Shown here: positions 1 to 59,771 of the stretch, in pieces
Layout: every line of letters starts with the position of its first letter
How positions within the stretch are numbered: position 1 is the first letter of the stretch
NCBI GenBank assembly: GCA_018093385.1
Contig: GCA_018093385.1_4808.1
From: a phage
Length of the DNA: 64,000 nucleotides
Strand: one strand, 5' to 3'
Translations under genes and position numbers: made by a program
The notes under the pieces: model-generated
Databases searched by the model: none
Seen by the model: only the letters and a program-made list of their open reading frames with translations
What the model was told of the DNA's origin: nothing

Positions 1-83
1 AAAAAAACAATTAACTCCATTTTGAATTAATTTAAATTAATTTTTTTCTACATCCTCATACTTATACTAAACTTATATTTATA

Positions 84-140
84 CGTATCATCCGTAAGAT
101 ATAAGTAAAAACAAAGACTTGCGGCAATACGGATGATACG
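84..140. repeat. 13-bp perfect inverted repeat CGTATCATCCGTA (84-96) / TACGGATGATACG (128-140) with 31-bp spacer, preceded by an AT-rich tract (1-83); copy A of an iteron-like element
   Basis: Read directly; same arms and spacing recur at 16034-16089. Confidence 0.8.
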
Positions 141-315
141 TCACGATACGCTTCAACCAGCCAGCAGCGGCTAAGTCATTGATTTGCATAACAAGCGGCA
201 AAAGGGATGGATTTCTTTTATACGTATCAAACAGTACACCACGCACCACGGTCCGCAATTCTATTTGCACTATGATTTGTGTATGTTTATAGCCATAATG
301 AACATCAATCTGCAC

Positions 316-344
316 TTGAATATAATGTCCATCCATTGTATAAT
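316..344 (+). promoter_or_regulatory. sigma70-like promoter TTGAAT-N17-TATAAT upstream of TerS-like gene
   Basis: Consensus hexamers with 17-bp spacer; first 14-bp repeat sits near predicted +1. Confidence 0.5.
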
Positions 345-364
345 TCACACTATTAATTTGCACT

Positions 365-853
365 ATGGGATTTTGCACTATGAGTCAAGATTATGTAGCG
401 ATGCCTGAAGACTTTGAAGACCCGCGATTCGCAGAGCACAATCAGGCTTTATTCGATGAGTTCATTGACCTTGTTATTCAGGGCCATGACATGCGCGCAG
501 CTTTTGCACTAGTATTTGGAATGGAAGTTGCAACGGATAACTACACTGGCCAGCGAATCCTTTGCGCGCAACGCAATCCATACTACAAAATGCGCTTCAA
601 AAAGCGTATGGAAGAGATGCCACTCAAGGATTTGTGGAGCGTAAAAGGCGCAATTCACAATTTGGTTAAGCTTGTGCGTGATCCAGAAGTCGCGGCGTCA
701 GCCAAGCTTAATGCGATTCGTGAACTGAATATCATCTACGGCATCACGATGATTGACGAAAACGGTAACAGCAAGATGGGCCGTTCTATGGACGATTTCT
801 ACAAGGATTTTGGAGAGGCGGCCAAAGAAGGAGAGCAATTCTCCCGCCACTAG
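365..853 (+). CDS. Terminase small subunit-like DNA-binding protein (putative); start may be ATG 380
   Basis: HTH-like N-region and C-terminal AASAKLNAIRELNIIYGI resembling the conserved TerS segment; embedded in repeat array. Confidence 0.45.
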   Translation: MGFCTMSQDYVAMPEDFEDPRFAEHNQALFDEFIDLVIQGHDMRAAFALVFGMEVATDNYTGQRILCAQRNPYYKMRFKKRMEEMPLKDLWSVKGAIHNLVKLVRDPEVAASAKLNAIRELNIIYGITMIDENGNSKMGRSMDDFYKDFGEAAKEGEQFSRH

Positions 854-967
854 CCAATTTGCACTATGAAACGGCCCTAGAACACATTGCCTCCACTTCT
901 AGGGCCATCGGTAATACGACGGGGAAGGTTGCAACCGTAAACGCGTTAGAAAGTGTATTATTATAAG

Positions 968-1231
968 TCATCTTTTAGTCACCTTACGTAACAATTTACG
1001 ACCTTCAACCGTCCAATCGAACGATTCCACCAGCAGATTCGCACTATAACCTAAGACGATGCGCCCTTTCTCGTTATCGACCCGCCAACAAGTCTCGAAT
1101 AGCATTCGATTTGCACTATTAACTATTGCCGCAACTCGCGTAGGATAAGCGCAATTTGCACTATGGTCGTAAAGGGATAAGGTGCGACCACTTCCGATGG
1201 ACAACGTAGCGATGAGAATGAGCGTGTTCAT
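968..1231 (-). CDS. Hypothetical protein (weak; overlaps repeat array)
   Basis: 87-aa ORF, modest SD. Confidence 0.3.
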   Translation of the reverse strand: MNTLILIATLSIGSGRTLSLYDHSANCAYPTRVAAIVNSANRMLFETCWRVDNEKGRIVLGYSANLLVESFDWTVEGRKLLRKVTKR

Positions 1232-1281
1232 AAGCCACCAATTTGCACTATGAAAAGCGACCCCGAAGGGCCGCCATTCGA

Positions 1282-1908
1282 TTAGATAATCTGGAAGGTG
1301 TAGGACTTGTTGCCGAACTCGAAGTTCAAGCGTCCAGCTTCTTTAAGCTTCATGCGGAAGCGAATATGCTTGCTATCCGGTAAGCCCAGCGCGGCGAACG
1401 CTACGCGGACCGATTTGAACTCTCCTACACCCTCGACCATAACGCCGTTACGGGTGAGACGCTTTTGCGCCACTTCCTTATTATCCCAACTTTTTGCAAT
1501 ACCTTCGCTATTCGAACGGCGATGGGAAGGAGTGCCATTTTGCACTACGCAATTTGCACTATCGTTCAGGCCGCTTTTAACGAAGGCTTCATACTCTTCG
1601 TCGGTCATCGCATCGAGTTCTTCCTGAGTCGGCTCGGCCTTTTTAACGACCGCACGCGCCTTATGCGTTTTTACATCGCTGGACACTTCCTCGCGCGGCT
1701 TCGCGTCGGGAATGGGCGATTCGTTGGACGGCTCATCGAGCGCGTTTAAGGACTCGATTAACGCGATTACGCGAGTCTCGGCGGTCCGGCGGTCCGCAAA
1801 CTTCTTAATCGGTTTTGAGCCGGAATTTGCATTATAGAATGCAACGAGGTCGACGGTCTTAGTTGCGATAACGTCGCCGCTAGTCGAGAAACGATTTAAG
1901 CTAACCAT
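1282..1908 (-). CDS. Hypothetical protein
   Basis: 208-aa ORF with AGGAG SD 6 bp upstream of ATG. Confidence 0.55.
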   Translation of the reverse strand: MVSLNRFSTSGDVIATKTVDLVAFYNANSGSKPIKKFADRRTAETRVIALIESLNALDEPSNESPIPDAKPREEVSSDVKTHKARAVVKKAEPTQEELDAMTDEEYEAFVKSGLNDSANCVVQNGTPSHRRSNSEGIAKSWDNKEVAQKRLTRNGVMVEGVGEFKSVRVAFAALGLPDSKHIRFRMKLKEAGRLNFEFGNKSYTFQII

Positions 1909-1988
1909 AATAAACTCCTATTTGTTAGGGCGCTAGGCGCGAAAGAATTTTATTAAAGCGCCGCGCACGACGCTCTAAAAATCCTCTC

Positions 1989-2273
1989 TTACGCTTCGAC
2001 GAGGGAGAAGGTCTCAAATTCTTCTTCGCCCATAACGAGTAAGATATTACCGATTTCGACCGCTTCGAAGAAATATCCGTTAACGTTTACTTCGAAGGCT
2101 TCGCGGTCCGATTCCGGTAACGCCGCGTAAAGTTTAAAAGCCTCGGCGACCGTTACCCCACCAGCCTCGATAGTTTGGTCTACGTTCGCGGCGTAGACTT
2201 CGGATAAAATTTGTTTTACGCCGTAGTTCTCGACGATAGCGTTACGGATAGAAGAAACGTTAAGAATAGCCAT
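1989..2273 (-). CDS. Small hypothetical protein, paralog family member 1 of 3
   Basis: 94 aa, AGGAG SD; related to 2499-2801 and 2909-3199 products. Confidence 0.55.
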   Translation of the reverse strand: MAILNVSSIRNAIVENYGVKQILSEVYAANVDQTIEAGGVTVAEAFKLYAALPESDREAFEVNVNGYFFEAVEIGNILLVMGEEEFETFSLVEA

Positions 2274-2342
2274 TTTAAACTCCTAGTTCTCGACGGGCGT
2301 TAACGACCTATTCGTTAACTCATCCCGTCCCGATATGAGTAC

Positions 2343-2370
2343 ATTATAATATAGTGTAGAAAAAAGTAAA
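2343..2370 (-). promoter_or_regulatory. Promoter TTTACT-N16-TATAAT driving 1989-2273
   Basis: Shares core aaaagtgctttact...tacact...tataatgt with the promoter at 2813-2841. Confidence 0.5.
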
Positions 2371-2414
2371 GCACTTTTTCGATAAAAATGAGATAAATTA
2401 TTTTATCTTTTTTC

Positions 2415-2442
2415 TTTACTTCTTCATACACTCGCGTATACT
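2415..2442 (+). promoter_or_regulatory. Promoter TTTACT-N16-TATACT driving 2499-2801
   Basis: Same promoter family as 2343-2370 and 2813-2841. Confidence 0.5.
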
Positions 2443-2498
2443 TGTTTATATCGAGACGGGCGATGGCCCTTCCTTCTACTAGCATCGGGAGTTTTATT

Positions 2499-2801
2499 AT
2501 GACCACTTTAATCTCTTCTATCCTTACTTACGACGAAGACCGTTTAACCGTTCGCTCTCTTATCGCCGCCGTTAACGCGGAACTAGAATCCACCATTATT
2601 AAGGTCCGCGCGGTCGCTTTCGTCGGCCTTTCCTTCGACGATATTAAGTACGCCGAACGTAGCGCCATCCGCTTCGCGAAGACCGACGACGAAGCCGTTA
2701 CCCTTATCGAGACGGTTACGCCGCGCGGCGAAGCGTTAATTATCGTCGAGTATATCGACGTAGAAGGCGATAAGGCTTATAAATATTTTATTGCAGAATA
2801 A
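2499..2801 (+). CDS. Small hypothetical protein, paralog family member 2
   Basis: 100 aa from internal ATG with GGGAG SD; ORF track gives a longer 2442 start. Confidence 0.5.
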   Translation: MTTLISSILTYDEDRLTVRSLIAAVNAELESTIIKVRAVAFVGLSFDDIKYAERSAIRFAKTDDEAVTLIETVTPRGEALIIVEYIDVEGDKAYKYFIAE

Positions 2802-2812
2802 CGAAAAAGTGC

Positions 2813-2841
2813 TTTACTTCTTCGTACACTAAGACTATAAT
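2813..2841 (+). promoter_or_regulatory. Promoter TTTACT-N17-TATAAT driving 2909-3199
   Basis: Consensus hexamers; third member of repeated promoter family. Confidence 0.55.
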
Positions 2842-2908
2842 GTTTTATATCGAGAGGGGATGAGGTAGCGAATAGGTCGCTACCCGCCCGACCAACTAGG
2901 AGATTATT

Positions 2909-3199
2909 ATGATTACTTTAGCCGCTATCCGTTCCGCTCGCGTCGAGACTTCCGAAAACTCTAACGTATTTGGCGAAACCTTAGAGAGCGTTTATCTCTC
3001 TAACGTAGACGCAACTATCGAACCTATTTATGAGCCGATCAACTTCCTCGACCTTTACAAGTATCGCGACGAGGACATCGTATCATCCCGCGTAACGATT
3101 AACGGCTTCGTCTATACGATTACCGAAATCGGCGGCGAATATCTCGCTGTACCGCAACTCGGCGGCGAAGTAACTTATTTTAAAATTGTCTCCTTATAA
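2909..3199 (+). CDS. Small hypothetical protein, paralog family member 3
   Basis: 96 aa, AGGAG SD. Confidence 0.55.
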   Translation: MITLAAIRSARVETSENSNVFGETLESVYLSNVDATIEPIYEPINFLDLYKYRDEDIVSSRVTINGFVYTITEIGGEYLAVPQLGGEVTYFKIVSL

Positions 3200-3219
3200 T
3201 ATCCTTCCGTTACTAATAG

Positions 3220-3244
3220 GCCGCGCTTAGTCGCGGCTTTTCTT
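3220..3244 (+). terminator. Rho-independent terminator (GCCGCG-loop-CGCGGC followed by TTTTCTT)
   Basis: GC stem plus T-run directly after stop of 2909-3199. Confidence 0.6.
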
Positions 3245-3895
3245 CGTCCCTATCTCGATGCGCTTCTCCGCGAAAACTCCTTTATCCTTCCCTTCGTCGT
3301 CGCATAATCTTCGTCGAGATGCTCCTTAGTTCGCATAACAGGTATTACGTTAAATGGAGAACATCGCGTAAGTCCTTGTTTTATATAGACACCTATATCG
3401 GACCGTTAAGGCGGGTCGCGTAAGTCGTTGTTTTATAAAGGTGCAAAACTTTCCCTTCGTTCCGAACTAAAACGAGAAATATGCCGACCCTTCGCCCGAA
3501 AATAGTACGCATGCGAAATTACACGCATCTAGAATAATCCCCACCGATATTATACTACACGCAATCATTCGCTTTCGAATCATTATGCTTCATATTATTG
3601 TGTATCGAATCATTCGCTTTCGAATTGTAACGCTGGAAACTGTAACGGCGATTGATTATTGCGTTCGTGTGGTTTTTATGGCATGGGTCTTTTGGTGCGT
3701 TTTGGTACTTGATGAAATTTGCAGTACACTAATCAAAATACGACACATTTGGTCCACTAACTTTTCAAGAAAAAGTCCTGGACAGTACCGTACTATTTTG
3801 TGCCCACAGTAAATTTGCAGTACACTCCTGCGCGGCAGGCAAAAGAAAGGGCCGCCACAGCGACCCACGATTCACGGTTAAATCAGCAACACCCA

Positions 3896-9407: not shown

Positions 9408-10868
9408 ATGAATAAAATATTAACACATAATTGGAAATTCATGTACCAGTTGAATCCTGCTTTAAAAGAAGTCTGGAAGACAAAAGCGCGATACAAAGTG
9501 ATATACGGCGGTCGTGCATCTTCCAAATCGCACGATGCCGCTGGTTTTGCTATTTATTTGGCGGCAAACTTCAAATTAAAATTCCTTTGCGTTCGACAAT
9601 TCCAGAACAAGATTTCTGAATCTGTATATACTCTATTAAAAGACAAAATAGAGATTTCTGATTTTAAAGATGAGTTCAATTTATTAAAGAACTCTATCGA
9701 ACACAAAAGAACTAAATCTGAATTTCTATTTTATGGTATCGCACGTAACGTTGATGAAATCAAATCAACAGAAGGCGTTGATGTTCTTTGGCTGGAAGAA
9801 GCGCACGCGCTTACTGAAGAACAGTGGGACATTATTGAGCCGACAATACGTAAAGAAGGGTCCGAAATATGGATCATCTTTAACCCTGATGAAGAGGCCG
9901 ATTTCGTATATCAAAACTTTGTTATGCGACCGCCGAAGAATGCCATTGTTAAAAAGATAAACTGGCAAGACAATCCATTTTTGTCGCAAACGATGCTGGA
10001 CGTTATTGCAGGCATGTACGAGCGTGACCCGAAAAAGGCAGAGCACGTTTATGGCGGCGTGCCGAAGACTGGCGGCGACAAATCTGTAATCAACCGCGCA
10101 TTCGTTAAGGCCGCGCTTAATCTACACAAGCACCCCACGCTGGGCTGGAGTTTGTCAGGGTCTAACCGTATAGGCTTTGACGTAGCGGACGATGGCGACG
10201 ACCTTAACGCCACTGCATTCGTCACAGGAAACGTATTGCGCGGCATCAAGACGTGGGAAGGCCTGGAAGATGAATTGTTGAAATCGGCAAGCGGAGTTTG
10301 GAAAGATGCGCTTACATTCGGCGCTTCCATAACTTATGACGCCATCGGTGTCGGCGCTTTTGCTGGTTCAAAATTTGATGAACTAAACGAGTATGCAATA
10401 CATGAAAATCCATCATTTCCAAGAATCGAATTTAATGCGTTCAACGCGCAAGGGTCTGTTGATGATCCTGATGACGTTTTTCTTGAATTACCACACGTTG
10501 AAATACTCAATAAAGACCATTTCGCAAACATAAAAGCGCAAAAATGGACTGAAATTGCAGAGAGATTCAGAAAGACATACGAATATGCAACTGGGCAAGC
10601 CGTATATCCGACTGATGAATTGATTTCAATCGACACCGATGGTATACCGGAACTTGGGATTCCAGCTTGGACTACTGAAGAGATTGAGACGTTTCTTTTT
10701 GAGATGTCAGCGCCGCGCAAGGATACATCTGTTCTTGGTAAGTTCAAAGTTGAATCTAAAAAGGACATGGCAAAGCGCGGAGTCAAATCACCTAACAAAG
10801 CGGACGCAGCAATCATGGCATTGATGAAACCAATCGTTGCAGCATCCGGCTTCTTCTCTAACCTTTAA
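9408..10868 (+). CDS. terL: Terminase large subunit
   Basis: Walker A-like YGGRASSKS, Walker B VLWLEEAH, nuclease-type C-half; canonical position before portal. Confidence 0.85.
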   Translation: MNKILTHNWKFMYQLNPALKEVWKTKARYKVIYGGRASSKSHDAAGFAIYLAANFKLKFLCVRQFQNKISESVYTLLKDKIEISDFKDEFNLLKNSIEHKRTKSEFLFYGIARNVDEIKSTEGVDVLWLEEAHALTEEQWDIIEPTIRKEGSEIWIIFNPDEEADFVYQNFVMRPPKNAIVKKINWQDNPFLSQTMLDVIAGMYERDPKKAEHVYGGVPKTGGDKSVINRAFVKAALNLHKHPTLGWSLSGSNRIGFDVADDGDDLNATAFVTGNVLRGIKTWEGLEDELLKSASGVWKDALTFGASITYDAIGVGAFAGSKFDELNEYAIHENPSFPRIEFNAFNAQGSVDDPDDVFLELPHVEILNKDHFANIKAQKWTEIAERFRKTYEYATGQAVYPTDELISIDTDGIPELGIPAWTTEEIETFLFEMSAPRKDTSVLGKFKVESKKDMAKRGVKSPNKADAAIMALMKPIVAASGFFSNL

Positions 10869-11685: not shown

Positions 11686-14061
11686 ATGAAAATTCTTGGC
11701 ATAAAACTCTGGGAGAAGACGCAACCAGAAGCCGAACCAGCGGAGATGCCGCCAGGCGACCCATTGGCACCGTTTGAACGCCTTGAAAGGCGCGGCAGCG
11801 GTCAACGCTGGGAAAAGACTGAAAGCAATCGACCGACCTTTAAAACGGTTGATGACTTCCCTTTATATGAGCCTGATATCAACGGGGACGGCGTTGCAAT
11901 CATCAAAGGTCGCTCAGTAGATTCAGCAACCGTATCCAAAAAAGTTATGGATAATGCCTTAAAGAACATCAGTTCAGAAGGGCAGGTGAATCCATACACA
12001 GTGCCTATTCAGTTGCAAAACTGGTACTTGTCGCAGTCATTCATCGGCTATCAAGCTTGCGCCATCATCGCGCAGCACTGGCTGGTGAACAAGGCTTGTT
12101 CCATGGTAGGTCGCGATGCGGTCCGTAAAGGCTGGGAAGTCAAATCCAGTTCTGAGTCGGAATTGTCAGTACAGGCCAGCGAACGCCTAAAGCAAATTGA
12201 TAAAGAATTTAATATCAAAGAGCACTTAGTTGAAGCCGAACGATTCAAGAATATTTTTGGCATCCGCGTCATCATATTTGATGTGCGCAGTGATGACCCA
12301 GAATATTATAGTAAACCTTTTAACATCGATGGTGTGACAAAAGGGTCTTATAAGGGAATCATTCAGGTTGACCCTTATTGGATGATGCCATTCTTGACGT
12401 CTGAAAACACTGCAGACCCTGCGTCACAGCATTTCTATGATCCAGAATACTGGGTTATCAGCGGACAGCGTTATCATCGCAGCCACCTAATCATCTTGCG
12501 CAACGATGAGCCAGCTGATATTCTCAAGCCGACTTATATCTACGGCGGCATTCCTCTGACTCAGCAGATTTATGAACGTATCTATGCCGCTGAACGTACC
12601 GCTAACGAAGCGCCATTGCTGGCGATGTCTAAGCGTACAACCACGCTGCGGACCGACGTTGACAAGGCGATTGCCAATGAGCGGTCGTTTGCCGAACGTC
12701 TGATGATGTGGATTAAGTACCGCGACAACTATGCGGTAAAAGTGCTTGGTCAGAAAGAAGAGATGGACCAGTTTGACATCAACTTGTCAGACTTCGACAG
12801 CATCATCATGAACCAGTACCAGCTGGTGGCTGCAATCGCAAAAGTGCCGTCGACGAAGCTATTAGGGACGTCACCTAAAGGCTTTAACGCCACTGGTGAG
12901 TTCGAGATGGTCAGCTATCACGAAGAATTGGAAACTTGTCAGCAGCACGATTTGACGAAGATTCTGGACCGTCACTATAAAATCCTTTTGAAATCTGAAG
13001 GTGTTGAAGTCGACGTTAAAGTGGCATGGGAGCCAGTTGGTTCACTTACTGCTACTCAGCTTGCAGAGATTAACGACAAACGAGCGAATACTGGTAAGAC
13101 TCTCATTGATGCTGGCGTCATCTCCCCTGATGAAGAGCGCGACCGCATCAAGGACGACAAAAACAGCGGCTACAACCGTTTGCCAGAAGATACAGCAGAA
13201 GAAACCCCAGGGATGTCTCCAGAGAATATGGCATTGCTTGGCAAGTCTGCTGGTGAAGTTCTGCAAGGTAAAGCCGATATTGAACAGGCCAAAGCTGATG
13301 TCGTCAAGATGGGCGGCCAGTTCTATAGTGAGACTGGTATCATGCCGGAAGGTGCCGCGCGCGGTGAGTTGGCAGAAAACCCTGACAGGGCGCCAGTTGA
13401 GATCAACATGGATGATACCGATGACGAATCAAGCCATCAGGTTGATGTCCTAACGCAACTGAAAGAAGGTCTGGAGGGTATTGCTGACTATTACCTTAAA
13501 GAAGGTCAGGATGTGGATTTTGACCCTCAAAAAGACGCAAGGTCTGTGCAGCCGTCTACCCTTCCAAGCGTAAAAGGCAATGTAGTCAACTTGCGCCACA
13601 ATGTAGGGAAGATGGATGCCTCATCGCTGCCTAAGATGAAGTTGCACGGGATGATTCTTGGTATTGAGAATCCTCGCAACAGCATTCGCAGGGGCAACAG
13701 CCTTGATGGTGAATGGGCAGTTAAGATGCCGCACCATTACGGATTTATCAAAGGCACCAAGGGCGCTGATGGTGATGAAGTCGACTGCTTTGTTGGACCA
13801 AATATGAAGTCGCCTAAAGTATTCATCATTAACCAAAATGATAATTATTCTGGCGAATTTGATGAACACAAGTGTATGCTTGGATTTGATTCAGCAGAAG
13901 AAGCGAAAGAAGCTTATCAAGCATCATTTGGTAACGGTTGGAATGGATTTGACTCAATCCACGAATTGGATGTAAACTCATTCAAGGAGTGGTTGAAGGG
14001 TGATTGCTCTCAAGCATATGGAGCACTCAATAATCCTACTAATTCACCGAAGCAAGGTTGA
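11686..14061 (+). CDS. Portal protein with C-terminal inorganic-pyrophosphatase-like segment
   Basis: 791 aa between terL and Mu-F-like gene; C-terminus has HYGFIKGT...DGDEVDC...AEEAKEAYQASF. Confidence 0.65.
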   Translation: MKILGIKLWEKTQPEAEPAEMPPGDPLAPFERLERRGSGQRWEKTESNRPTFKTVDDFPLYEPDINGDGVAIIKGRSVDSATVSKKVMDNALKNISSEGQVNPYTVPIQLQNWYLSQSFIGYQACAIIAQHWLVNKACSMVGRDAVRKGWEVKSSSESELSVQASERLKQIDKEFNIKEHLVEAERFKNIFGIRVIIFDVRSDDPEYYSKPFNIDGVTKGSYKGIIQVDPYWMMPFLTSENTADPASQHFYDPEYWVISGQRYHRSHLIILRNDEPADILKPTYIYGGIPLTQQIYERIYAAERTANEAPLLAMSKRTTTLRTDVDKAIANERSFAERLMMWIKYRDNYAVKVLGQKEEMDQFDINLSDFDSIIMNQYQLVAAIAKVPSTKLLGTSPKGFNATGEFEMVSYHEELETCQQHDLTKILDRHYKILLKSEGVEVDVKVAWEPVGSLTATQLAEINDKRANTGKTLIDAGVISPDEERDRIKDDKNSGYNRLPEDTAEETPGMSPENMALLGKSAGEVLQGKADIEQAKADVVKMGGQFYSETGIMPEGAARGELAENPDRAPVEINMDDTDDESSHQVDVLTQLKEGLEGIADYYLKEGQDVDFDPQKDARSVQPSTLPSVKGNVVNLRHNVGKMDASSLPKMKLHGMILGIENPRNSIRRGNSLDGEWAVKMPHHYGFIKGTKGADGDEVDCFVGPNMKSPKVFIINQNDNYSGEFDEHKCMLGFDSAEEAKEAYQASFGNGWNGFDSIHELDVNSFKEWLKGDCSQAYGALNNPTNSPKQG

Positions 14062-14921: not shown

Positions 14922-15842
14922 ATGACGATACCAATCAACACATTCCCTCTATCTGGACAAACTCCAGTCTTGCCTGCGGTGTATGCTAATGGCTTGGCAA
15001 TTGTCTCAGAATTCACTTCTGATAAAAACTTGATTGTTCCACTGAGCCCGCCGCTTGCATCAGGGTATAACTCAGTAGGCCAATTCTTTATGATTGGCAA
15101 TGATGGCGATTCGACCAGCAAGCCTAATCTGACATTGTCTGTACCTAAGATGGACATCACAGACGTTCAAACTGGCTTGACTGCATCAACAATCACCATT
15201 GCTTTTGGAGAAGCGGTGATTATAGGAATGGAGTCTGGAGGGTCCAAGAATGCTGTCGCCGTTAAGGTAGTCAAATCCAGCGACAACCAATACACGTTAC
15301 CAGCTGCGACGGCTTCCGTTCTCGGCGGCGTCAAAATAGGAAGCGGAATAAGCGTCGCAGGTGACGGTACAATTAGCGTCACTCAATACTCATTGCCGAT
15401 TGCGTCAGCATCTACTTTAGGCGGCGTAAAGGTCGGTACAACTCTATCAATTGATGGTTCCGGTGTGCTTAACGCAGCGGAAAGCACCGTCCAGAATGCC
15501 ACGAACAGTGTTAGCAATCCTCCAACCACTTTGGTTAATCTGGCAACCTTAAACCTTCCTGCAGGAAAGTGGCTTGTGACGGCAAGTCAGTTGACTGTCG
15601 CGACAGCAGGAATTCAAGCGAACACCGGAATTACAGCCAAATTGTCAACAAGCGATTCAGATATTACGGATGATGCATTTACGATGTCAGCTGGCATTCG
15701 GGCTGCAGGTCGTTTCGGCGGCAATATTCCAACAAAGATAATTACTCTTGCCGCGCCTGGCGATGTGTATCTAAACTATCAATGCACAGATGCGTTGACA
15801 TCTACCGTTTACGGACAGATCACCGCAATCAAGCTGAACTAA
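14922..15842 (+). CDS. Structural protein with internal tandem Gly-rich repeat
   Basis: GAGGT SD; repeated LGGVK(I/V)G...(D)G(T/S)(I/G)...segments. Confidence 0.5.
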   Translation: MTIPINTFPLSGQTPVLPAVYANGLAIVSEFTSDKNLIVPLSPPLASGYNSVGQFFMIGNDGDSTSKPNLTLSVPKMDITDVQTGLTASTITIAFGEAVIIGMESGGSKNAVAVKVVKSSDNQYTLPAATASVLGGVKIGSGISVAGDGTISVTQYSLPIASASTLGGVKVGTTLSIDGSGVLNAAESTVQNATNSVSNPPTTLVNLATLNLPAGKWLVTASQLTVATAGIQANTGITAKLSTSDSDITDDAFTMSAGIRAAGRFGGNIPTKIITLAAPGDVYLNYQCTDALTSTVYGQITAIKLN

Positions 15843-15852
15843 AGAGGAAGTT

Positions 15853-15990
15853 ATGCAAAAGATTATTCAGTCACGTTATGTTAAAGTGCGAAATATTAAT
15901 TGCAACTCTTTGCTTTCTTGGAAATGGGCTGTTTACGACTCGATGTTAATTGGCGTTTTAGTTGCAGGAGTGCTATTTAATATTCACTGA
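15853..15990 (+). CDS. Small membrane peptide (45 aa, one TM)
   Basis: Strong AAGAGGA SD 6 bp before ATG; below ORF-track length cutoff. Confidence 0.4.
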   Translation: MQKIIQSRYVKVRNINCNSLLSWKWAVYDSMLIGVLVAGVLFNIH

Positions 15991-16020
15991 ATTCATCGGC
16001 AAAGGATTGCCGCGAGTTTT

Positions 16021-16300
16021 ATACGTATAATGACGTATCATCCGTATCAAGTAAGTTGTTGTTTTCAAAAGAATCTTACGGATGATACGGATGATACGCA
16101 TTGCCGCCGTACTATATAGGAATTCAAATAAATTAATTTAAAATTATATATCTAATTTAATTTTATTTTTTTATAAACTCTTATATATGAAAAGTATCCG
16201 TATCATCCGTATCATCCGTAGCACACCAGTGATAGCGCGGCTTATACACCGATACGGATAAAAATACGCCTCATTTTATCCGTATCATCCGTATCACACT
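16021..16300. repeat. Iteron-like element copy B: inverted repeat CGTATCATCCGTA (16034-16046) / TACGGATGATACG (16077-16089), AT-rich core (16100-16190), direct ATCCGTATC repeats (16195-16221, 16278-16295)
   Basis: Read directly; identical arms and spacing to 84-140. Confidence 0.8.
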
Positions 16301-16352
16301 AATAAAGGCGCGGCTATATCGGTCGTTATACATATTCAAACCATAATTATTG

Positions 16353-16382
16353 TTTGCCTAAGTTTTTTTCATTAGATATAAT
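16353..16382 (+). promoter_or_regulatory. Promoter TTTGCC-N18-TATAAT upstream of scaffold/capsid genes
   Basis: Hexamers followed by GAGGGTGG SD. Confidence 0.45.
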
Positions 16383-16411
16383 ACACAATACTTATTTGAG
16401 GGTGGATGCGA

Positions 16412-17824
16412 ATGCAAACGGCACGCGAAATTGACAAAAATGGATTCTTGACGATTATGGGTTGTCCAATTTCGTCATTTGGCATTTTTGATTATTCTGC
16501 TGGTCAAGTTGGTCTTGATGGTGATCCGAATCGCATCGTAAAAGTCTATCGCCCTGAGTCAGCGGTGAAAGACCCCGAAGCGATAGATTCATTCAAAAAT
16601 ATCCCTTTCATCGACAATCACGAAATGCTTTCTGGATTTGAAGGTGATGAGGATAACACAGCACCCGAAGAGTATGGAGTTGATGGCGTTCTGACTGGCA
16701 ATGTTTATTATGACAAGCCATGGATGCGCGGCGACCTTAAAGTGTTTAGCCGTCGTCTGAAGAAGGCCATTGATTCTGGAAAGGTTGACTTGTCTTTGGG
16801 CTATGACTGTGAATTCATCATACAGTCTGGAGAGTTTGACGGGCAGCCGTATGAAGTGGTGCAGACAACTCTTCGCGGCAACCACATTGCTCTCGTGGAC
16901 GTTGGTCGAGTACCAGGTGCACGGGTGCTGGATGGTCGTTGCTTTGACCATCTTTGTTTGACGACTGTAACACCATCCAACGAGGATTTAGACATGCCAA
17001 AACCGTTAAAAGGTAAAGCGCGTGATAATGCTGTTGAACAGCTGAAATCACTGATCCCTGCGCTCGAACAATTTCTGAATGAAGAGAGTACTGAAGCTGC
17101 TCATCAGGACGAAGTTGAAGTGAAAGCAGAAGAGAAGGACTCAACCGAAAATCGTGAAGAAGTAATGGTTGATCCAGAAGTCAAGGCAGAAGCAGAAGAA
17201 ACCCCAGAAGGTGAAGAGAAGTTTGAAGTTGAAACTGAATCTCACGCCAGCGGCGAACTTCCGCAATTGATCAGCCAAATCGAAGCACTTATTGCAAAAC
17301 TGAAAGGTGGCGCGGTAGGTGATGAAGAAGAAGTTGAAGCCGAAGTCAAAGACGAAGAAGTTGAAGTCAAGGCTGAAGATGTATCACCTTGCGACAAAGC
17401 TGAAGATGTGGTTAGCGGCCTGCAAAACAGCAACGTAAAGGGGGCTTCGGTCGAAAAAGATGACAAACCGACAAAAGCGGCGAAAGCGTCGCCAGGTCCA
17501 GCAAAAGGGGAACACTCAATGGCATCTGATTCAGCAGTTGCTGCTTTCTACGCTGATTCTGCTCGTAAGAATAGCCTCTACCAGCGCCTGTCTAAAGTTG
17601 TTGGTGCCTTTGATCATGCAACTATGGACTCCAAGTCCGTAGCGAAATATGGCGCTAAAAAGTTAGGCTTGAAGTGCGTTGATGGTGCTGAGTTTGACGT
17701 GGTGGATAATTATCTGCGCGGCGTTGAGCACGGTCAGAAACAGCGTGTAGTCGCAAAACAAAAGGCCGCTGCGGATTCTGCAGCAACTGACGAAGCATTT
17801 GAAGCTTGGTTGAAAGGGGAATAA
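16412..17824 (+). CDS. Scaffolding/prohead maturation protein (acidic repeat-rich)
   Basis: Glu-rich EVEAEVKDEEVEVKAE repeats; immediately upstream of capsid gene; ORF-track start 16406. Confidence 0.55.
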   Translation: MQTAREIDKNGFLTIMGCPISSFGIFDYSAGQVGLDGDPNRIVKVYRPESAVKDPEAIDSFKNIPFIDNHEMLSGFEGDEDNTAPEEYGVDGVLTGNVYYDKPWMRGDLKVFSRRLKKAIDSGKVDLSLGYDCEFIIQSGEFDGQPYEVVQTTLRGNHIALVDVGRVPGARVLDGRCFDHLCLTTVTPSNEDLDMPKPLKGKARDNAVEQLKSLIPALEQFLNEESTEAAHQDEVEVKAEEKDSTENREEVMVDPEVKAEAEETPEGEEKFEVETESHASGELPQLISQIEALIAKLKGGAVGDEEEVEAEVKDEEVEVKAEDVSPCDKAEDVVSGLQNSNVKGASVEKDDKPTKAAKASPGPAKGEHSMASDSAVAAFYADSARKNSLYQRLSKVVGAFDHATMDSKSVAKYGAKKLGLKCVDGAEFDVVDNYLRGVEHGQKQRVVAKQKAAADSAATDEAFEAWLKGE

Positions 17825-17826
17825 AC

Positions 17827-18444
17827 ATGACTTTCCAAACTAGTGTAGGCCGTCAATATACAACTGGCTTTCCTGGCGACATCGTTCGCGACGGCCCACA
17901 GCGTGGGAAGCCAGGCCGAATCGTTAGCGCCAACGACGGTGCAAACGTAAACGCCATCAGCCGTGTGTTTGGTTTTAAAGCTGACGTATCATTAATGGGT
18001 ACTGGCCAAACCAAAACCTTGGGCGCGCAGGACTTTGAAGTTGAACTGGGCGGCACCAATTACTATGGCATCCTTGGCAACAGCAAGCGTTACGCTCTGT
18101 ATGGCAACTCTACTGGTCCTTTGGGCGCCAGCATGGTTCTGCCTCAATATAGCGAAGGCGAGTTCTACGATATGTGCACGGGCCTCGTAGTTGAAGTATT
18201 CAACCCAAGCACCAGTCCGCAGACGCTGAACTACGGCGACCTGCTCGCTTATGTACCTAAAGGCATTTCCAGCGGTAACAACCCGAACAACTTGCCTATC
18301 GGTGCAATTATCGCCTACACTGGCTCACTGCCAACTGGCATGGTTGCCATTCCAGGCGGTATCGTGATTGACCCGACTGCTATTGCCCTTTCCGGCCCAA
18401 GCGTCCAGTCTTCCACTTATACCATTGTACAATTGACTCGTTAA
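17827..18444 (+). CDS. Head structural protein (Gly-rich; decoration or capsid-associated)
   Basis: Internal ATG with AAGGGG SD. Confidence 0.45.
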   Translation: MTFQTSVGRQYTTGFPGDIVRDGPQRGKPGRIVSANDGANVNAISRVFGFKADVSLMGTGQTKTLGAQDFEVELGGTNYYGILGNSKRYALYGNSTGPLGASMVLPQYSEGEFYDMCTGLVVEVFNPSTSPQTLNYGDLLAYVPKGISSGNNPNNLPIGAIIAYTGSLPTGMVAIPGGIVIDPTAIALSGPSVQSSTYTIVQLTR

Positions 18445-53034: not shown

Positions 53035-53877
53035 TTATTCTGCTTGATCGTCGTGCTCTTCGGCATCTGCTTCGGATTCAACATCGATGAACTCGATGTG
53101 GCCCATCTCTTCCAGTTTGCTCAGGTAAGAGCGAACTGAAGCGCCAAACAGCTGATCTTTAACTTTTTCACCCAGCTCGTCGATAGACTGCGGCTGACCG
53201 ATTTCACCTTCTTTGATCGCAGCCAGTACGCGACCACGGGTGGAATGTTCTTGCGGCTGGCTCAGGCCGTTTCCGGTGTAAACAAAGTGAGTTGCTTTAG
53301 CGCGACGCTGACCATTAGCTTTCTTGGCGGCTTTACGCTCTGCAATCGCTTTGCGACGCTCTTCAGCTTCTTTCTTACGCTGTTCTTTCTGTTGTTCTGC
53401 AGCTTCTTTCGCCGCGATCTTAGCAGCTTCACGCTCTGCCTTGCGTTTCGCTTTCGCTTCTTCTTTAGCCTTTTCTTTTTCGGCTTTCGCTTCTGCACGG
53501 GCCTGATCACGTTCAGCCTTTTTCGCCGCAGCTTGTTCAGCTTTCAGGCGCTTGGCTTCTTCTTTCGCCTTTGCCTTTTCAATTTCTTTAGCGGCTTTAG
53601 CGGCTTCACGCTCTGCCTTCTTAGCAGCAGCCTTTTCAGCACGCTCTGCAGCCTTCTTAGCGGCTTCTTCAGCACGCTTCTGAGCCTTCTCGTCAGCAGC
53701 CTGCTTGCGTTTCAGCGCAGCTTCTTCACGCTTGGCTTGTTTTTCCTGCTCACGCTTCTGGCGTTTTTCTTCGGCTTCTTTCTTTTTAGCCAGGCGTTTT
53801 TCTTCAGCCACGCGACGACGTTCTGCTGCGGCTGCTTGTTTTTCTTCTTTAGATAATACTTTGATTGCTTCGGCCAT
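53035..53877 (-). CDS. Lys/Ala/Glu-rich low-complexity protein with globular C-terminal domain
   Basis: About 190 aa of KAE repeats then about 85 aa of normal composition; ATG 53877 has AAGGA SD (ORF track 53883 is GTG). Confidence 0.5.
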   Translation of the reverse strand: MAEAIKVLSKEEKQAAAAERRRVAEEKRLAKKKEAEEKRQKREQEKQAKREEAALKRKQAADEKAQKRAEEAAKKAAERAEKAAAKKAEREAAKAAKEIEKAKAKEEAKRLKAEQAAAKKAERDQARAEAKAEKEKAKEEAKAKRKAEREAAKIAAKEAAEQQKEQRKKEAEERRKAIAERKAAKKANGQRRAKATHFVYTGNGLSQPQEHSTRGRVLAAIKEGEIGQPQSIDELGEKVKDQLFGASVRSYLSKLEEMGHIEFIDVESEADAEEHDDQAE

Positions 53878-55707: not shown

Positions 55708-56790
55708 ATGGCTAGTTTAAGAGAAGAAGCAAAAATAATTGAAGAGTTTTTAACAGAACTCCAAAGAGGCATCCCAGAAGATGAGCGCGTCATGACGGTG
55801 TTTGCTCCTGAAGCAACGGTGCAGACTGATGAGCGCGGCAAGAAGATCAACAGCAGCTTCTGGCCTAAGCCTTGGAAGTTGGGCAAGCCGCTCATGCAGC
55901 ACCAAAACGGCTATGCGTGCATCAGTTCAATGCGTAAGGCTCCCAACCCAAAGACGGGTGAGATGCGATACTGGCGTACAGAGTCAGCCTTTGGTCACGG
56001 CATGGCGATGATGGTCGACGACATCGGTCACGGTAAAGGGTCCAAAGGCGATTTAGATTTGGAATTCTTTTTTGAGCGACTGAAGCCGACTGTCATCGTC
56101 GAGACTTCACCGAACAATCACCAGCTTTGGTACTTCTTTAAAGAACCGATTGACCATCTTATTCAGTTCAAAGCGTTCCTTGGGTCTTTCGTTAACATGG
56201 TACTCAAGAAGGGCGGCGACAACACGATTAAAGACGTAACGCGCGTGGGTCGTGTTCCTGGGTGCATCAACAACAAGCGTGTGACTCACGACGGCCCCTA
56301 TAAATATGTCGATGAGAACGGCGACCCGTTCCGCTGCCGACTTGTCCATGCAGACTACTCATTGCGCTACACCATCGAAGACATTTGTCAGGCATTTGGC
56401 TTTCACGTCGTCATGCCGCAAAAGCGTGAAATTCAAATTGACGTTGATGAATACAAATACGACGCTGTTTGGTATAAGATAGCCCAGCAAATCCTTGCGC
56501 GCAATAAGATGGGCGAGGGGTCTGATGGCGATGTTGTTGAAAACATGTCGGGCAAGTGCCGCATCATCTGTCCTTGGGGTGAAGAGCATACCAACGGCGA
56601 CCCGTATGGCGCTTACTTTCGCGGCCCTATCCCTGGTGCAGAACATGAGTTTGTGTTCGGTTGCGCTCACGACTGTCACCGGAAAGGGGAAGGCAAGAAA
56701 GGTTGGACTGCTTTTGTTGAAGCAATCGTCATGCCTTATATTGAGAATCAACTTGACATGATAAATCGTCGTGCAGGTGGCATAAAATAG
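55708..56790 (+). CDS. Primase-polymerase (archaeo-eukaryotic primase-like) with Cys/His-rich C-terminal region
   Basis: Motifs MVDDIG, SPNNHQLWYFF, RVPGCINNK; C-terminal CPWGEEH...CAHDCH. Confidence 0.6.
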   Translation: MASLREEAKIIEEFLTELQRGIPEDERVMTVFAPEATVQTDERGKKINSSFWPKPWKLGKPLMQHQNGYACISSMRKAPNPKTGEMRYWRTESAFGHGMAMMVDDIGHGKGSKGDLDLEFFFERLKPTVIVETSPNNHQLWYFFKEPIDHLIQFKAFLGSFVNMVLKKGGDNTIKDVTRVGRVPGCINNKRVTHDGPYKYVDENGDPFRCRLVHADYSLRYTIEDICQAFGFHVVMPQKREIQIDVDEYKYDAVWYKIAQQILARNKMGEGSDGDVVENMSGKCRIICPWGEEHTNGDPYGAYFRGPIPGAEHEFVFGCAHDCHRKGEGKKGWTAFVEAIVMPYIENQLDMINRRAGGIK

Positions 56791-58100: not shown

Positions 58101-59771
58101 ATGTCAATTAATAATGACAATCTTCCAGAGGATACAGGTGATGAATTTGGTGCAATCTTTGACGAAATTCAAGATGCAGGCGTTTCGGAAGAAATGCAGG
58201 CAGCAGAGCAGCAAGGCACCAGAGCTAAAATCAGCCTTCAACATAAAGCTGTTGAAAAAGATTCAGAGCGCATGGAATGCTACGGTGAAGAAGACTTGGT
58301 TGAAAGAGCACGCTTGCTCGCCTCACTTCAGGTAATCAAGTTCCCTCACTACAAGCCTACCAAAGATGACTTCGTTCTACAGGCAGACCGGACGAGTGAC
58401 ATGAACCGTTATGCGGTGTTCGACGCGTTGTTTGATAAGGGAAGTGGCGTCGTTCCATTCCCTCACAAAGATACTTTTCGTGGGCGCTTAGTCGACCATC
58501 GCGGCGAAACATTCACCGACCGTACTTTGGAAGTCACAGAGATAGTTGCCGCTGTCGACGCAGCAGGATTGTCCAACCCAAACTCACGTCAGGTCGCTCA
58601 ATCCTATAAGGAATGGGCCATGCGTTATCAGCGCGACGACCTGATGGACTTCTTCTACAAGAAGCTGCCTGAATGGGACGGTACTGCGCGCATCGAGAAA
58701 TACCTTATCGAGCTATTCCGACCGTTCGATACAGAGTTAAACCGACAAATCGGTGTGTATTTTTGGCTATCGCTCTACAACCGCCTGACCAACCCTGGCT
58801 GTCAAGCGCCAATCTCCATCGCGCTCATCGGCGGCCAGAATGCAGGGAAGAGTTATTTTAGCAAGCTGCTTTGCGAAGCTATTATGAACGACCGCCACGC
58901 AACACCGATTCCGTTGAACTTAGCCGCGCAAAACTTCAACCCGTTCTTGCGAGCTATTACGGGTCGCTCAATTATCGCGAACGTTGGCGAGATGACAGGC
59001 TTTAAAAAGGCCGACATCGAAAACATGAAAGCATTCCTGACTAAGACGGAAGATGACCTGGACTTCAAATTTGAAGATACGCAGGTTAAACCACGCCAGT
59101 GGATTGCTATCATGGACGGCAACGAATACGCAGGCATGCAGCGTGATGACACGGGCAACCGTCGTGTGTACCCTATCTTTGTTGGCCAACTCGCCGACAA
59201 GGACGGGCAACCGAACTGGTCGAAAGATTTCCAAGCTGACCTTTCCACTTTGAAAGAAGACGTTTGGCAGTTGATGGCTGAGTGCGCTGCATGGATGGAG
59301 AAGCACGGCGAAGCAGGTTACAATGCATTTGTTGGTGAAACATCTCGCATGCTTACTGAGTTTAGTAAGAACGAAATGGAACGTGCGCGCGGCGTTATTC
59401 GTGATGAGATGGTGGACAACGACCTTGTTGAAGTCGTCATCACCGCGCCTTATGACCGACATCACAGCGGACGCTGGCACATCACCAGTGGTGCTATTGC
59501 TATGGGATTCAGAGCGAAGTGTGGCAAGTCGCCTTTCTCTCGTACCCTTGCGCCGCACATGTCGAAGCTTGGTTTTGAGCCTGCAACCTATCGCAACCAG
59601 CGCGGGTACTTTACGCCGCTGATTAAGAATGAAGCAGGAGAATACATTTCTGATTTGATGACCATCTTAGCGTATCTTATCCGCGATGAGTCTGACCCTG
59701 AAGATATTGAATTCTTGAAGAAGGTTATTGAGCGTAAACGTTCTTTGGGAAGAGATAAGGATGAATTCTGA
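58101..59771 (+). CDS. VirE-like P-loop NTPase (primase-associated helicase-like)
   Basis: Walker A LIGGQNAGKS; GGAGG SD; follows primase-polymerase gene. Confidence 0.55.
   Translation: MSINNDNLPEDTGDEFGAIFDEIQDAGVSEEMQAAEQQGTRAKISLQHKAVEKDSERMECYGEEDLVERARLLASLQVIKFPHYKPTKDDFVLQADRTSDMNRYAVFDALFDKGSGVVPFPHKDTFRGRLVDHRGETFTDRTLEVTEIVAAVDAAGLSNPNSRQVAQSYKEWAMRYQRDDLMDFFYKKLPEWDGTARIEKYLIELFRPFDTELNRQIGVYFWLSLYNRLTNPGCQAPISIALIGGQNAGKSYFSKLLCEAIMNDRHATPIPLNLAAQNFNPFLRAITGRSIIANVGEMTGFKKADIENMKAFLTKTEDDLDFKFEDTQVKPRQWIAIMDGNEYAGMQRDDTGNRRVYPIFVGQLADKDGQPNWSKDFQADLSTLKEDVWQLMAECAAWMEKHGEAGYNAFVGETSRMLTEFSKNEMERARGVIRDEMVDNDLVEVVITAPYDRHHSGRWHITSGAIAMGFRAKCGKSPFSRTLAPHMSKLGFEPATYRNQRGYFTPLIKNEAGEYISDLMTILAYLIRDESDPEDIEFLKKVIERKRSLGRDKDEF

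Follow-up and report, generated by a model that had tools for sequence, protein, structure and literature searches.

A paired repeat element conserved in Wifcevirus and its PB1-like relatives: candidate twin replication origins, one of them at the putative packaging cut

The P4 replication system comprises two separated sets of the same iterons, ori and crr, to which a primase-helicase binds through its C-terminal winged-helix domain. The two sets lie 4.5 kb apart, are both required for one origin and have no link to packaging. A pair of another kind is formed by the pac-like sites of T4 genes 16 and 19, where a second sequence homologous to the terminase recognition site is found a few kb off and the small terminase (TerS) has been proposed to pair the two; these sites are short, lie inside genes and have neither an AT core nor inverted repeat clusters. 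In SaPIs the origin is located directly after the rep gene, with a primase gene upstream. Its 6-12 short iterons surround an AT-rich centre, two or more per side and in opposed orientation, and are read by the C-terminal winged helix of Rep (PMC9371898). In phage SPP1, two sister origins, oriL and oriR, each combine repeats with an AT-rich unwinding element, and oriR interrupts the particle-assembly genes (PMC6316719). SPP1 pac (pacL-pacC-pacR) has binding regions flanking a central cut and is placed just upstream of the TerS gene, overlapping it and its promoters (PMC6316719).

The DNA analysed here (the window) is 64 kb long and comes from a Wifcevirus, a PB1-like myophage of E. coli. Its positions 15000-18000 show 99% identity to phage HermannAdler/Bas98, and 29 related records were found. 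Two copies of one repeat element are present, copy A at the left edge and copy B within the head genes (Table 1); large terminase is at 9408 and portal at 11686. As the first-pass annotation had proposed, copy A precedes a TerS-like gene, which its match to E217 TerS shows to be a true small terminase, and copy B precedes a promoter-like site for the head protease and capsid operon. The TerS start lies 240 bp past the site A repeats, and a promoter-like site is found ahead of it at 299-344. An ORF annotated between the repeats and TerS in relatives (Mansfield gp001, Bas98_0095) is probably not a gene, since its ATG is ACG in the window and the stretch 141-150 is a degenerate repeat unit. Imperfect tandem coding repeats also occur at 17103-17379 (GAAGTTGAAG-type, in the head protease/scaffold gene) and at 53300-53800 (in a 282-aa minus-strand gene without an assigned function).

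Table 1. Coordinates of the repeat elements, associated signals and candidate genes in the 64-kb window
Feature	Position	Strand	Description
Window start segment	1-18	+	Last 18 nt on the unique side of the concatemer junction
A-specific 18-mer, AATTAACTCC joined to ATTTTGAA (= AATTAACTCCATTTTGAA)	9-26	+	Spans the inferred cut between 18 and 19; absent from B
AT-rich core of A	19-83		Opens the direct terminal repeat; alignable to the AT core of B
Right repeat cluster of A	84-150		CGTATCATCCGTA at 84-96 (+), 31-bp spacer, reverse copy 128-140, degenerate reverse copy 141-150
TTTGCACTAT array, 12 copies (at most 1 mismatch)	264-1835	+	Beside copy A only; crosses genes on both strands
Small terminase (TerS) gene	380-853	+	phmmer E=7e-34 vs E217 TerS, PDB 7UXE
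Terminator-like hairpin and T run	15997-16022	+	Closes the upstream head-gene transcript
Left repeat cluster of B	16020-16098		Degenerate plus 1.5 forward units (16020-16049), 27-bp spacer, two reverse units (16077-16098)
Core of B	16099-16195		TATATAG-GAATTC (16113-16125) and AT tract; invariant in 7 Wifcevirus genomes
Right repeat cluster of B	16196-16296		Three forward 9-bp units (16196-16222), one reverse (16251-16259), two forward (16278-16296)
Sigma-70-like promoter, TTGCCT-17-TATAAT	16354-16382	+	Head protease, scaffold, capsid operon; invariant in relatives
Head maturation protease gene	16406-17824	+	First gene downstream of element B
RepB-type primase gene, candidate 'pri'	55708-56790	+	PF16793, E=1e-36
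VapE-like SF3 helicase gene	58101-59771	+	PF05272, E=2e-28; 556 aa

Each copy is a composite cis-element of ∼300 bp, in which two opposed clusters of 9-10-bp repeats flank an AT-rich core of ∼95-110 bp. The 9-10-bp repeat unit has the core ACGTATCAT in Wifcevirus. For the 13-mer CGTATCATCCGTA, 8 exact occurrences were counted in the window, all confined to 84-140 and 16034-16293; at up to two mismatches there were 11 matches against 0.78 expected, and 0 shuffles reached 11. The 13-bp inverted repeat that the first-pass annotation had described was recovered at both sites, at A with the arms and spacer given in Table 1 and at B with arms at 16034-16046 and 16077-16089 and a 30-bp spacer, followed by a second reverse CGTATCATCCGTA-type copy at 16086-16098. 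The direct ATCCGTATC repeats that it had placed at B are also there (16196-16222 and 16278-16295), together with an extra reverse copy at 16251-16259 that was absent from its list, and AT-rich tracts adjoin both sites as it had stated, with 6.7% G+C at 16120-16179 of B. Its figure of ∼560 bp of non-coding DNA at B stands only if the ORF 15853-15990 is ignored. This 45-codon ORF upstream of B is annotated and conserved in relatives, and if it is a gene the non-coding stretch measures 415 bp (15991-16405).

A 25-nt inverted repeat spans the AT core of B (16077-16101 vs 16196-16220), and the strong single-strand fold of this copy (z = -6.4) merely reflects the inverted repeats. A scan of the window against Rfam returned 0 matches, and a by-eye look for DnaA, IHF and MalT boxes gave no convincing match. 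The motif GCGGC(A/T) is present in all elements, mirrored about the AT core (GCCGC on the left, GCGGC on the right). Because it is common genome-wide, at 2.6 per kb, its enrichment at the elements is weak and was given no weight; GCGGC and its complement together occur 308 times (4.8 per kb), vs ∼1.3 per kb in a rough hand estimate based on base composition.

Since the window opens 18 bp before the start of the terminal repeat, only the inner half of A had been visible to the first-pass annotation. This right cluster aligns with the reverse complement of 16020-16098 (E=8e-15). The upstream half of A, which lies beyond the window edge, was read in WFC, Bas98, Mansfield and RCIP0319, where forward unit(s) and a spacer are followed by ATCTTACGGATGATACGGATGATACG, then by TATATAG and AATTAACTCC, with ATTTT directly across the putative cut. 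This half is highly variable among these relatives, yet the repeat units are kept. The resulting arrangement corresponds to that of a SaPI origin, with two sets of short repeats, at least two per side and opposed, around an AT-rich centre. At B, two reverse units and three forward units enclose a 97-bp core of 7-20% G+C, and the same layout is also present at A in the full-length junctions of relatives. The phage repeats differ from SaPI iterons in length, 9-10 bp vs 5-6 bp.

A and B are paralogues, and their likeness extends over ∼230 nt, as judged from pairwise alignment, and thus beyond the shared inverted repeat. In Bas98, 227 nt across the terminal-repeat start align with B at 69% identity (E=8e-25), and A also aligns with B in reverse orientation (E=2e-21); both orientations align because the element is quasi-palindromic. 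Within-genome comparisons of A and B gave E-values of 2e-18 in WFC, 1e-10 in MTx, 2e-10 in Kyle, 2e-31 in PaGU11 and 2e-29 in Maja. The pair therefore occurs in five genera, namely Wifcevirus, Myosmarvirus (Serratia phages MTx and KKP 3709), Pantoea phage Kyle, Pbunavirus (Pseudomonas phage PaGU11) and Bcepfunavirus (Burkholderia phage Maja), and its positions are constant across them: one copy is upstream of TerS, which begins 240-450 bp downstream of copy A in all five, and the other is upstream of the head protease. SPP1 oriR, which we take to lie between the MuF-like gene 7 and the scaffold gene 11, would match the slot of copy B. As to whether the element is conserved or mobile, a question the first-pass annotation had left to a comparison of relatives, these shared positions indicate that it is conserved. 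No element copies beyond A and B were found within the 64-kb window, and a search of a viral collection returned only three matching contigs, two of which are known Wifcevirus genomes. The repeats are real, and the pair is larger and older than the first-pass annotation could see.

While the positions are constant, the repeat unit changes with the genus (ACGTATCAT, GGTTATT, GGTAATTTGG, GATAGTTAAC). In a bit-score matrix, A vs B scored 50-126 within a genome, whereas cross-genus comparisons reached at most 34 and shuffles at most 38. The copies thus resemble each other and not their counterparts in other genera, which indicates that A and B evolve in concert, a pattern expected of sites that share a single fast-evolving reader protein. 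Within the genus, site B is 96% identical over 7 Wifcevirus genomes and contains ∼165 consecutive invariant nt, vs ∼5% divergence in the coding flanks. A relative from the Logan collection (SRR26188688_3650, 72.5 kb), with 75% identity in the helicase and 65% in TerS, retains the repeat core as well as the cut 18-mer, but its extended repeat unit is altered to ACGTATCATATCGTA. A co-variation test on two Pbunavirus subgroups was set aside: no paired changes were seen, and it has no power because the copies there are only 9-10% diverged.

A candidate reader of the repeats is the VapE-like helicase. Its AlphaFold (AF2) model, built from 30 sequences, has a pLDDT of 83.8, and its top PDB match in Foldseek is SaPI1 Rep1 bound to DNA (7PDS, E=3e-16, TM 0.5-0.6), with further matches to SaPI5 PriRep5, NrS-1 and poxvirus D5/E5. 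The predicted order of secondary-structure elements in residues 436-505 (helix-strand-helix-helix-strand-strand, H-b-H-H-b-b) suggests a winged-helix-like topology for the C-terminal domain. Among homologues, identity falls to 15-28% over the last ∼115 residues, vs 50-69% in the ATPase core. As in the SaPI Rep system, a helicase with a variable and, by prediction, winged-helix-like C-terminal domain is accompanied by a primase gene upstream, which unlike the SaPI primase is RepB-type. Copy A lies 240-250 bp past the helicase stop codon in Pbunavirus and Bcepfunavirus, which gives the pri-rep-ori order and places this copy directly after the helicase gene, as in SaPIs. Neither copy adjoins the helicase gene in the window: in Wifcevirus, copy A is ∼8.4 kb downstream of it (Bas98 coordinates), and copy B never adjoins it. 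The presence of two copies per genome, one of them at the putative packaging cut, is a further difference from SaPI origins. TerS is the other candidate; its recognition helix differs between genera and is identical in the relative with the retained repeat core. Co-variation does not separate TerS from the helicase, since both have variable putative DNA-reading parts.

The records of relatives place a genome end in copy A. Both the WFC record (72,472 bp, each end bearing a copy of the terminal repeat) and the Mansfield record begin at the base corresponding to window position 19; the Mansfield annotation gives a direct terminal repeat at 1-3673 as a PhageTerm prediction, and a terminal repeat of ∼3.7 kb has been described for WFC and WFH (Korf et al., PMC6563267). 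Transferred from these relatives, the physical left genome end, and with it the packaging cut, would fall between positions 18 and 19 of the window, inside copy A; the matching position in B is ∼16142/16143. A fixed end inside the core of copy A is found in four genera. In MTx the PhageTerm-predicted repeat begins in the region equivalent to the core of A, the Kyle record opens with bases that align to the AT core of its own copy B, and the Pbunavirus records Ab27, Ab29, E2005-C, PA11P1 and fHoPae01 begin mid-copy A. Reads of the Pbunaviruses Ab27-29 were reported to have one fixed terminus, and other Pbunavirus papers describe the genomes as headful and permuted. Neither records nor read-based reports place an end at copy B.

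At the far end of the terminal repeat, the Mansfield (PhageTerm) and WFC records put the right boundary ∼80 bp apart (3692/3693 vs 3772/3773), whereas the left boundary is identical, which hints at an imprecise, headful-like far end. The 12-mer CACTAACTTTTC, which the left end of MTx has in common with the right boundary in Wifcevirus, was dismissed as a coincidence, being a single match that finds no support in Kyle or Pbunavirus. The terminal repeat is rich in other short repeats (3364-3440, 3547-3634, 3716-3731, 3811-3826), comprising TCGCGTAAGTC.TTGTTTTATA.AG twice, AATCATTCGCTTTCGAAT twice and AAATTTGCAGTACAC twice, and a 33-nt inverted repeat (2352-2384/2799-2831) brackets the gene 2442-2801; early promoters or terminators may be represented here. 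In four genera, the stretch from copy A to TerS is C-rich and G-poor on the coding strand (PaGU11: 58230-58669), with a GC skew of -0.30 to -0.43 and CCACC-type repeats; in the Wifcevirus window this C-richness is weak (skew -0.12). A Rho-loading tract and a strand-specific replication signal are both conceivable here.

Two signals are found at copy A only. The 18-mer spanning the putative cut is invariant in 5 Wifcevirus junctions and is kept in the relative with a 75% identical helicase, whose AT tract has otherwise diverged. The TTTGCACTAT array is confined to the first 1.8 kb of the terminal repeat, with no members elsewhere in the 64 kb, and its conservation extends to WFC, Mansfield and the Logan relative; this one-way array may guide the terminase or mark the DNA end. 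Both could be terminase-specific signals, in which case the shared repeats would be available for a different role.

The comparison with SPP1 bears on both origins and packaging. Like oriL and oriR, the two copies each combine repeats with an AT-rich segment, and in SPP1, too, one such site interrupts the genes for particle assembly; the terminase, portal and MuF head modules of the two phages are related (PMC6316719). The large terminase of the Mansfield record is similar by BLASTp to that of SPP1. The SPP1 initiator gp38 and DnaB-type helicase have no kinship with the Wifcevirus proteins, the SPP1 repeats run direct rather than mirrored, and no SPP1 origin lies at pac. With SPP1 pac, the elements share binding regions (putative here) flanking a central cut, and copy A shares the location just upstream of TerS and its promoters, a location that copy B lacks (PMC6316719). 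SPP1 has a single pac with no internal twin, and Wifcevirus genomes differ from SPP1 in being reported as non-permuted, with a terminal repeat of ∼3.7 kb.

The explanation we tentatively favour is that A and B are twin SaPI-type replication origins, with a packaging cut signal embedded in A only. The first-pass annotation had read iterons beside an AT-rich tract as an origin; this remains the best-supported reading, by virtue of the layout, the SaPI-Rep-like helicase, the upstream primase and the conservation in five genera, and the interpretation as a whole is partly borne out. Under this model, A and B would be origins for a self-loading SF3 initiator helicase, as with SaPI Rep. The variable C-terminal domain of the helicase would read the repeats, two helicase rings would be loaded in head-to-head orientation, the AT core would then be melted, and the RepB-type primase would prime synthesis. 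The fixed left-end cut by the terminase would fall in the AT core of A, and copy B would stay uncut, because A alone carries the 18-mer and the one-way TTTGCACTAT array over the TerS gene. GC skew along the window shows no inflection at 16 kb, but it follows gene orientation only and is thus uninformative on origins.

Against an origin stands the position of the centre of copy A, which coincides with the genome end beside TerS, a classic pac signature, so that the shared repeats could be terminase sites. In this alternative, which we consider rather unlikely, both copies are TerS assembly sites of the pacL-pacC-pacR kind; TerS on the flanking clusters would position the large terminase at the AT core of A, and B would be an uncut TerS-binding twin that might regulate the head operon or pair with A before cutting. 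The fixed physical end at the centre of copy A in four genera, the TerS gene 240-450 bp downstream of A in every genus and a recognition helix that varies by genus and is identical where the repeat core is kept all speak for it. SPP1 adds a precedent, in which TerS binds both cut flanks, pac and the gene 1 promoters overlap, and terminase synthesis is self-repressed (PMC6316719). However, B is as conserved as A and yet has no end assigned to it, and a second functional pac 16 kb inside the genome would produce mis-phased genomes. The terminase could make do with the 18-mer and TTTGCACTAT array of A and dispense with the shared repeats, E217 TerS did not bind DNA appreciably in vitro (PMC9611059), and the adjacency to the helicase gene in two genera and the fit to the SaPI layout are left unexplained.

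The repeats could instead be operators through which a phage transcription factor times two late operons, which we regard as improbable. That one factor binds both sites, as the first-pass annotation had suggested, does fit the concerted evolution; the simple dimeric-regulator operator that it had in mind is the weakest of the three readings still live. Each copy stands 60-200 bp upstream of a sigma-70-like promoter (299-344; 16354-16382), similar TATAAT promoters occur in Kyle, Myosmarvirus and Pbunavirus, late genes with consensus promoters would have to be delayed, and the related phage 14-1 has promoters that depend on phage factors (PMC10914365). Yet other late operons (large terminase, portal, tail genes) carry no repeats, ∼10 symmetric sites around a 95-bp core of 7% G+C far exceed the needs of an operator, the CTGGG promoter core of PaGU11 copy B is not conserved in phage antinowhere, and the genome end falling in A receives no account. 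A functionless leftover of duplication, or a mobile miniature palindromic element, would agree with a quasi-palindromic element of ∼300 bp in two copies. It is hardly credible given the same two positions in five genera infecting different hosts, the co-evolution of the copies, the invariance of the core within the genus, the lack of further copies in the window and the mere three matching contigs in the viral collection.

The origin model can be extended to a single nucleoprotein module that is both origin and packaging start, an idea we put forward as speculative and more doubtful than the origin model itself. The terminase would cut the melted AT core of the active origin A, coupling replication initiation to the generation of the genome end, and perhaps to the duplication of the 3.7-kb terminal repeat; the sister origin B would sit in the head genes without a cut signal, and the module would be ancestral to the PB1-like family, including the therapeutic Pbunaviruses.

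PB1-like Pbunaviruses are among the most-used P. aeruginosa phages in personalised therapy (BASEL paper), and unusually short infection cycles have been reported for Wifceviruses. One paper put the origin inside the replication genes on the basis of GC skew. The searchable literature on Wifcevirus and Pbunavirus names neither an origin nor a pac site, and the element pair is not described in the papers found on these phages. The pair supplies testable candidates for both, bears on the conflicting reports of Pbunavirus genome ends and is relevant to the assessment of transduction risk. It also shows genome engineers which non-coding DNA to keep when rebooting or shrinking these phages. If it is true that origin and packaging cut share one site, this would represent an unusual coupling of replication to packaging.
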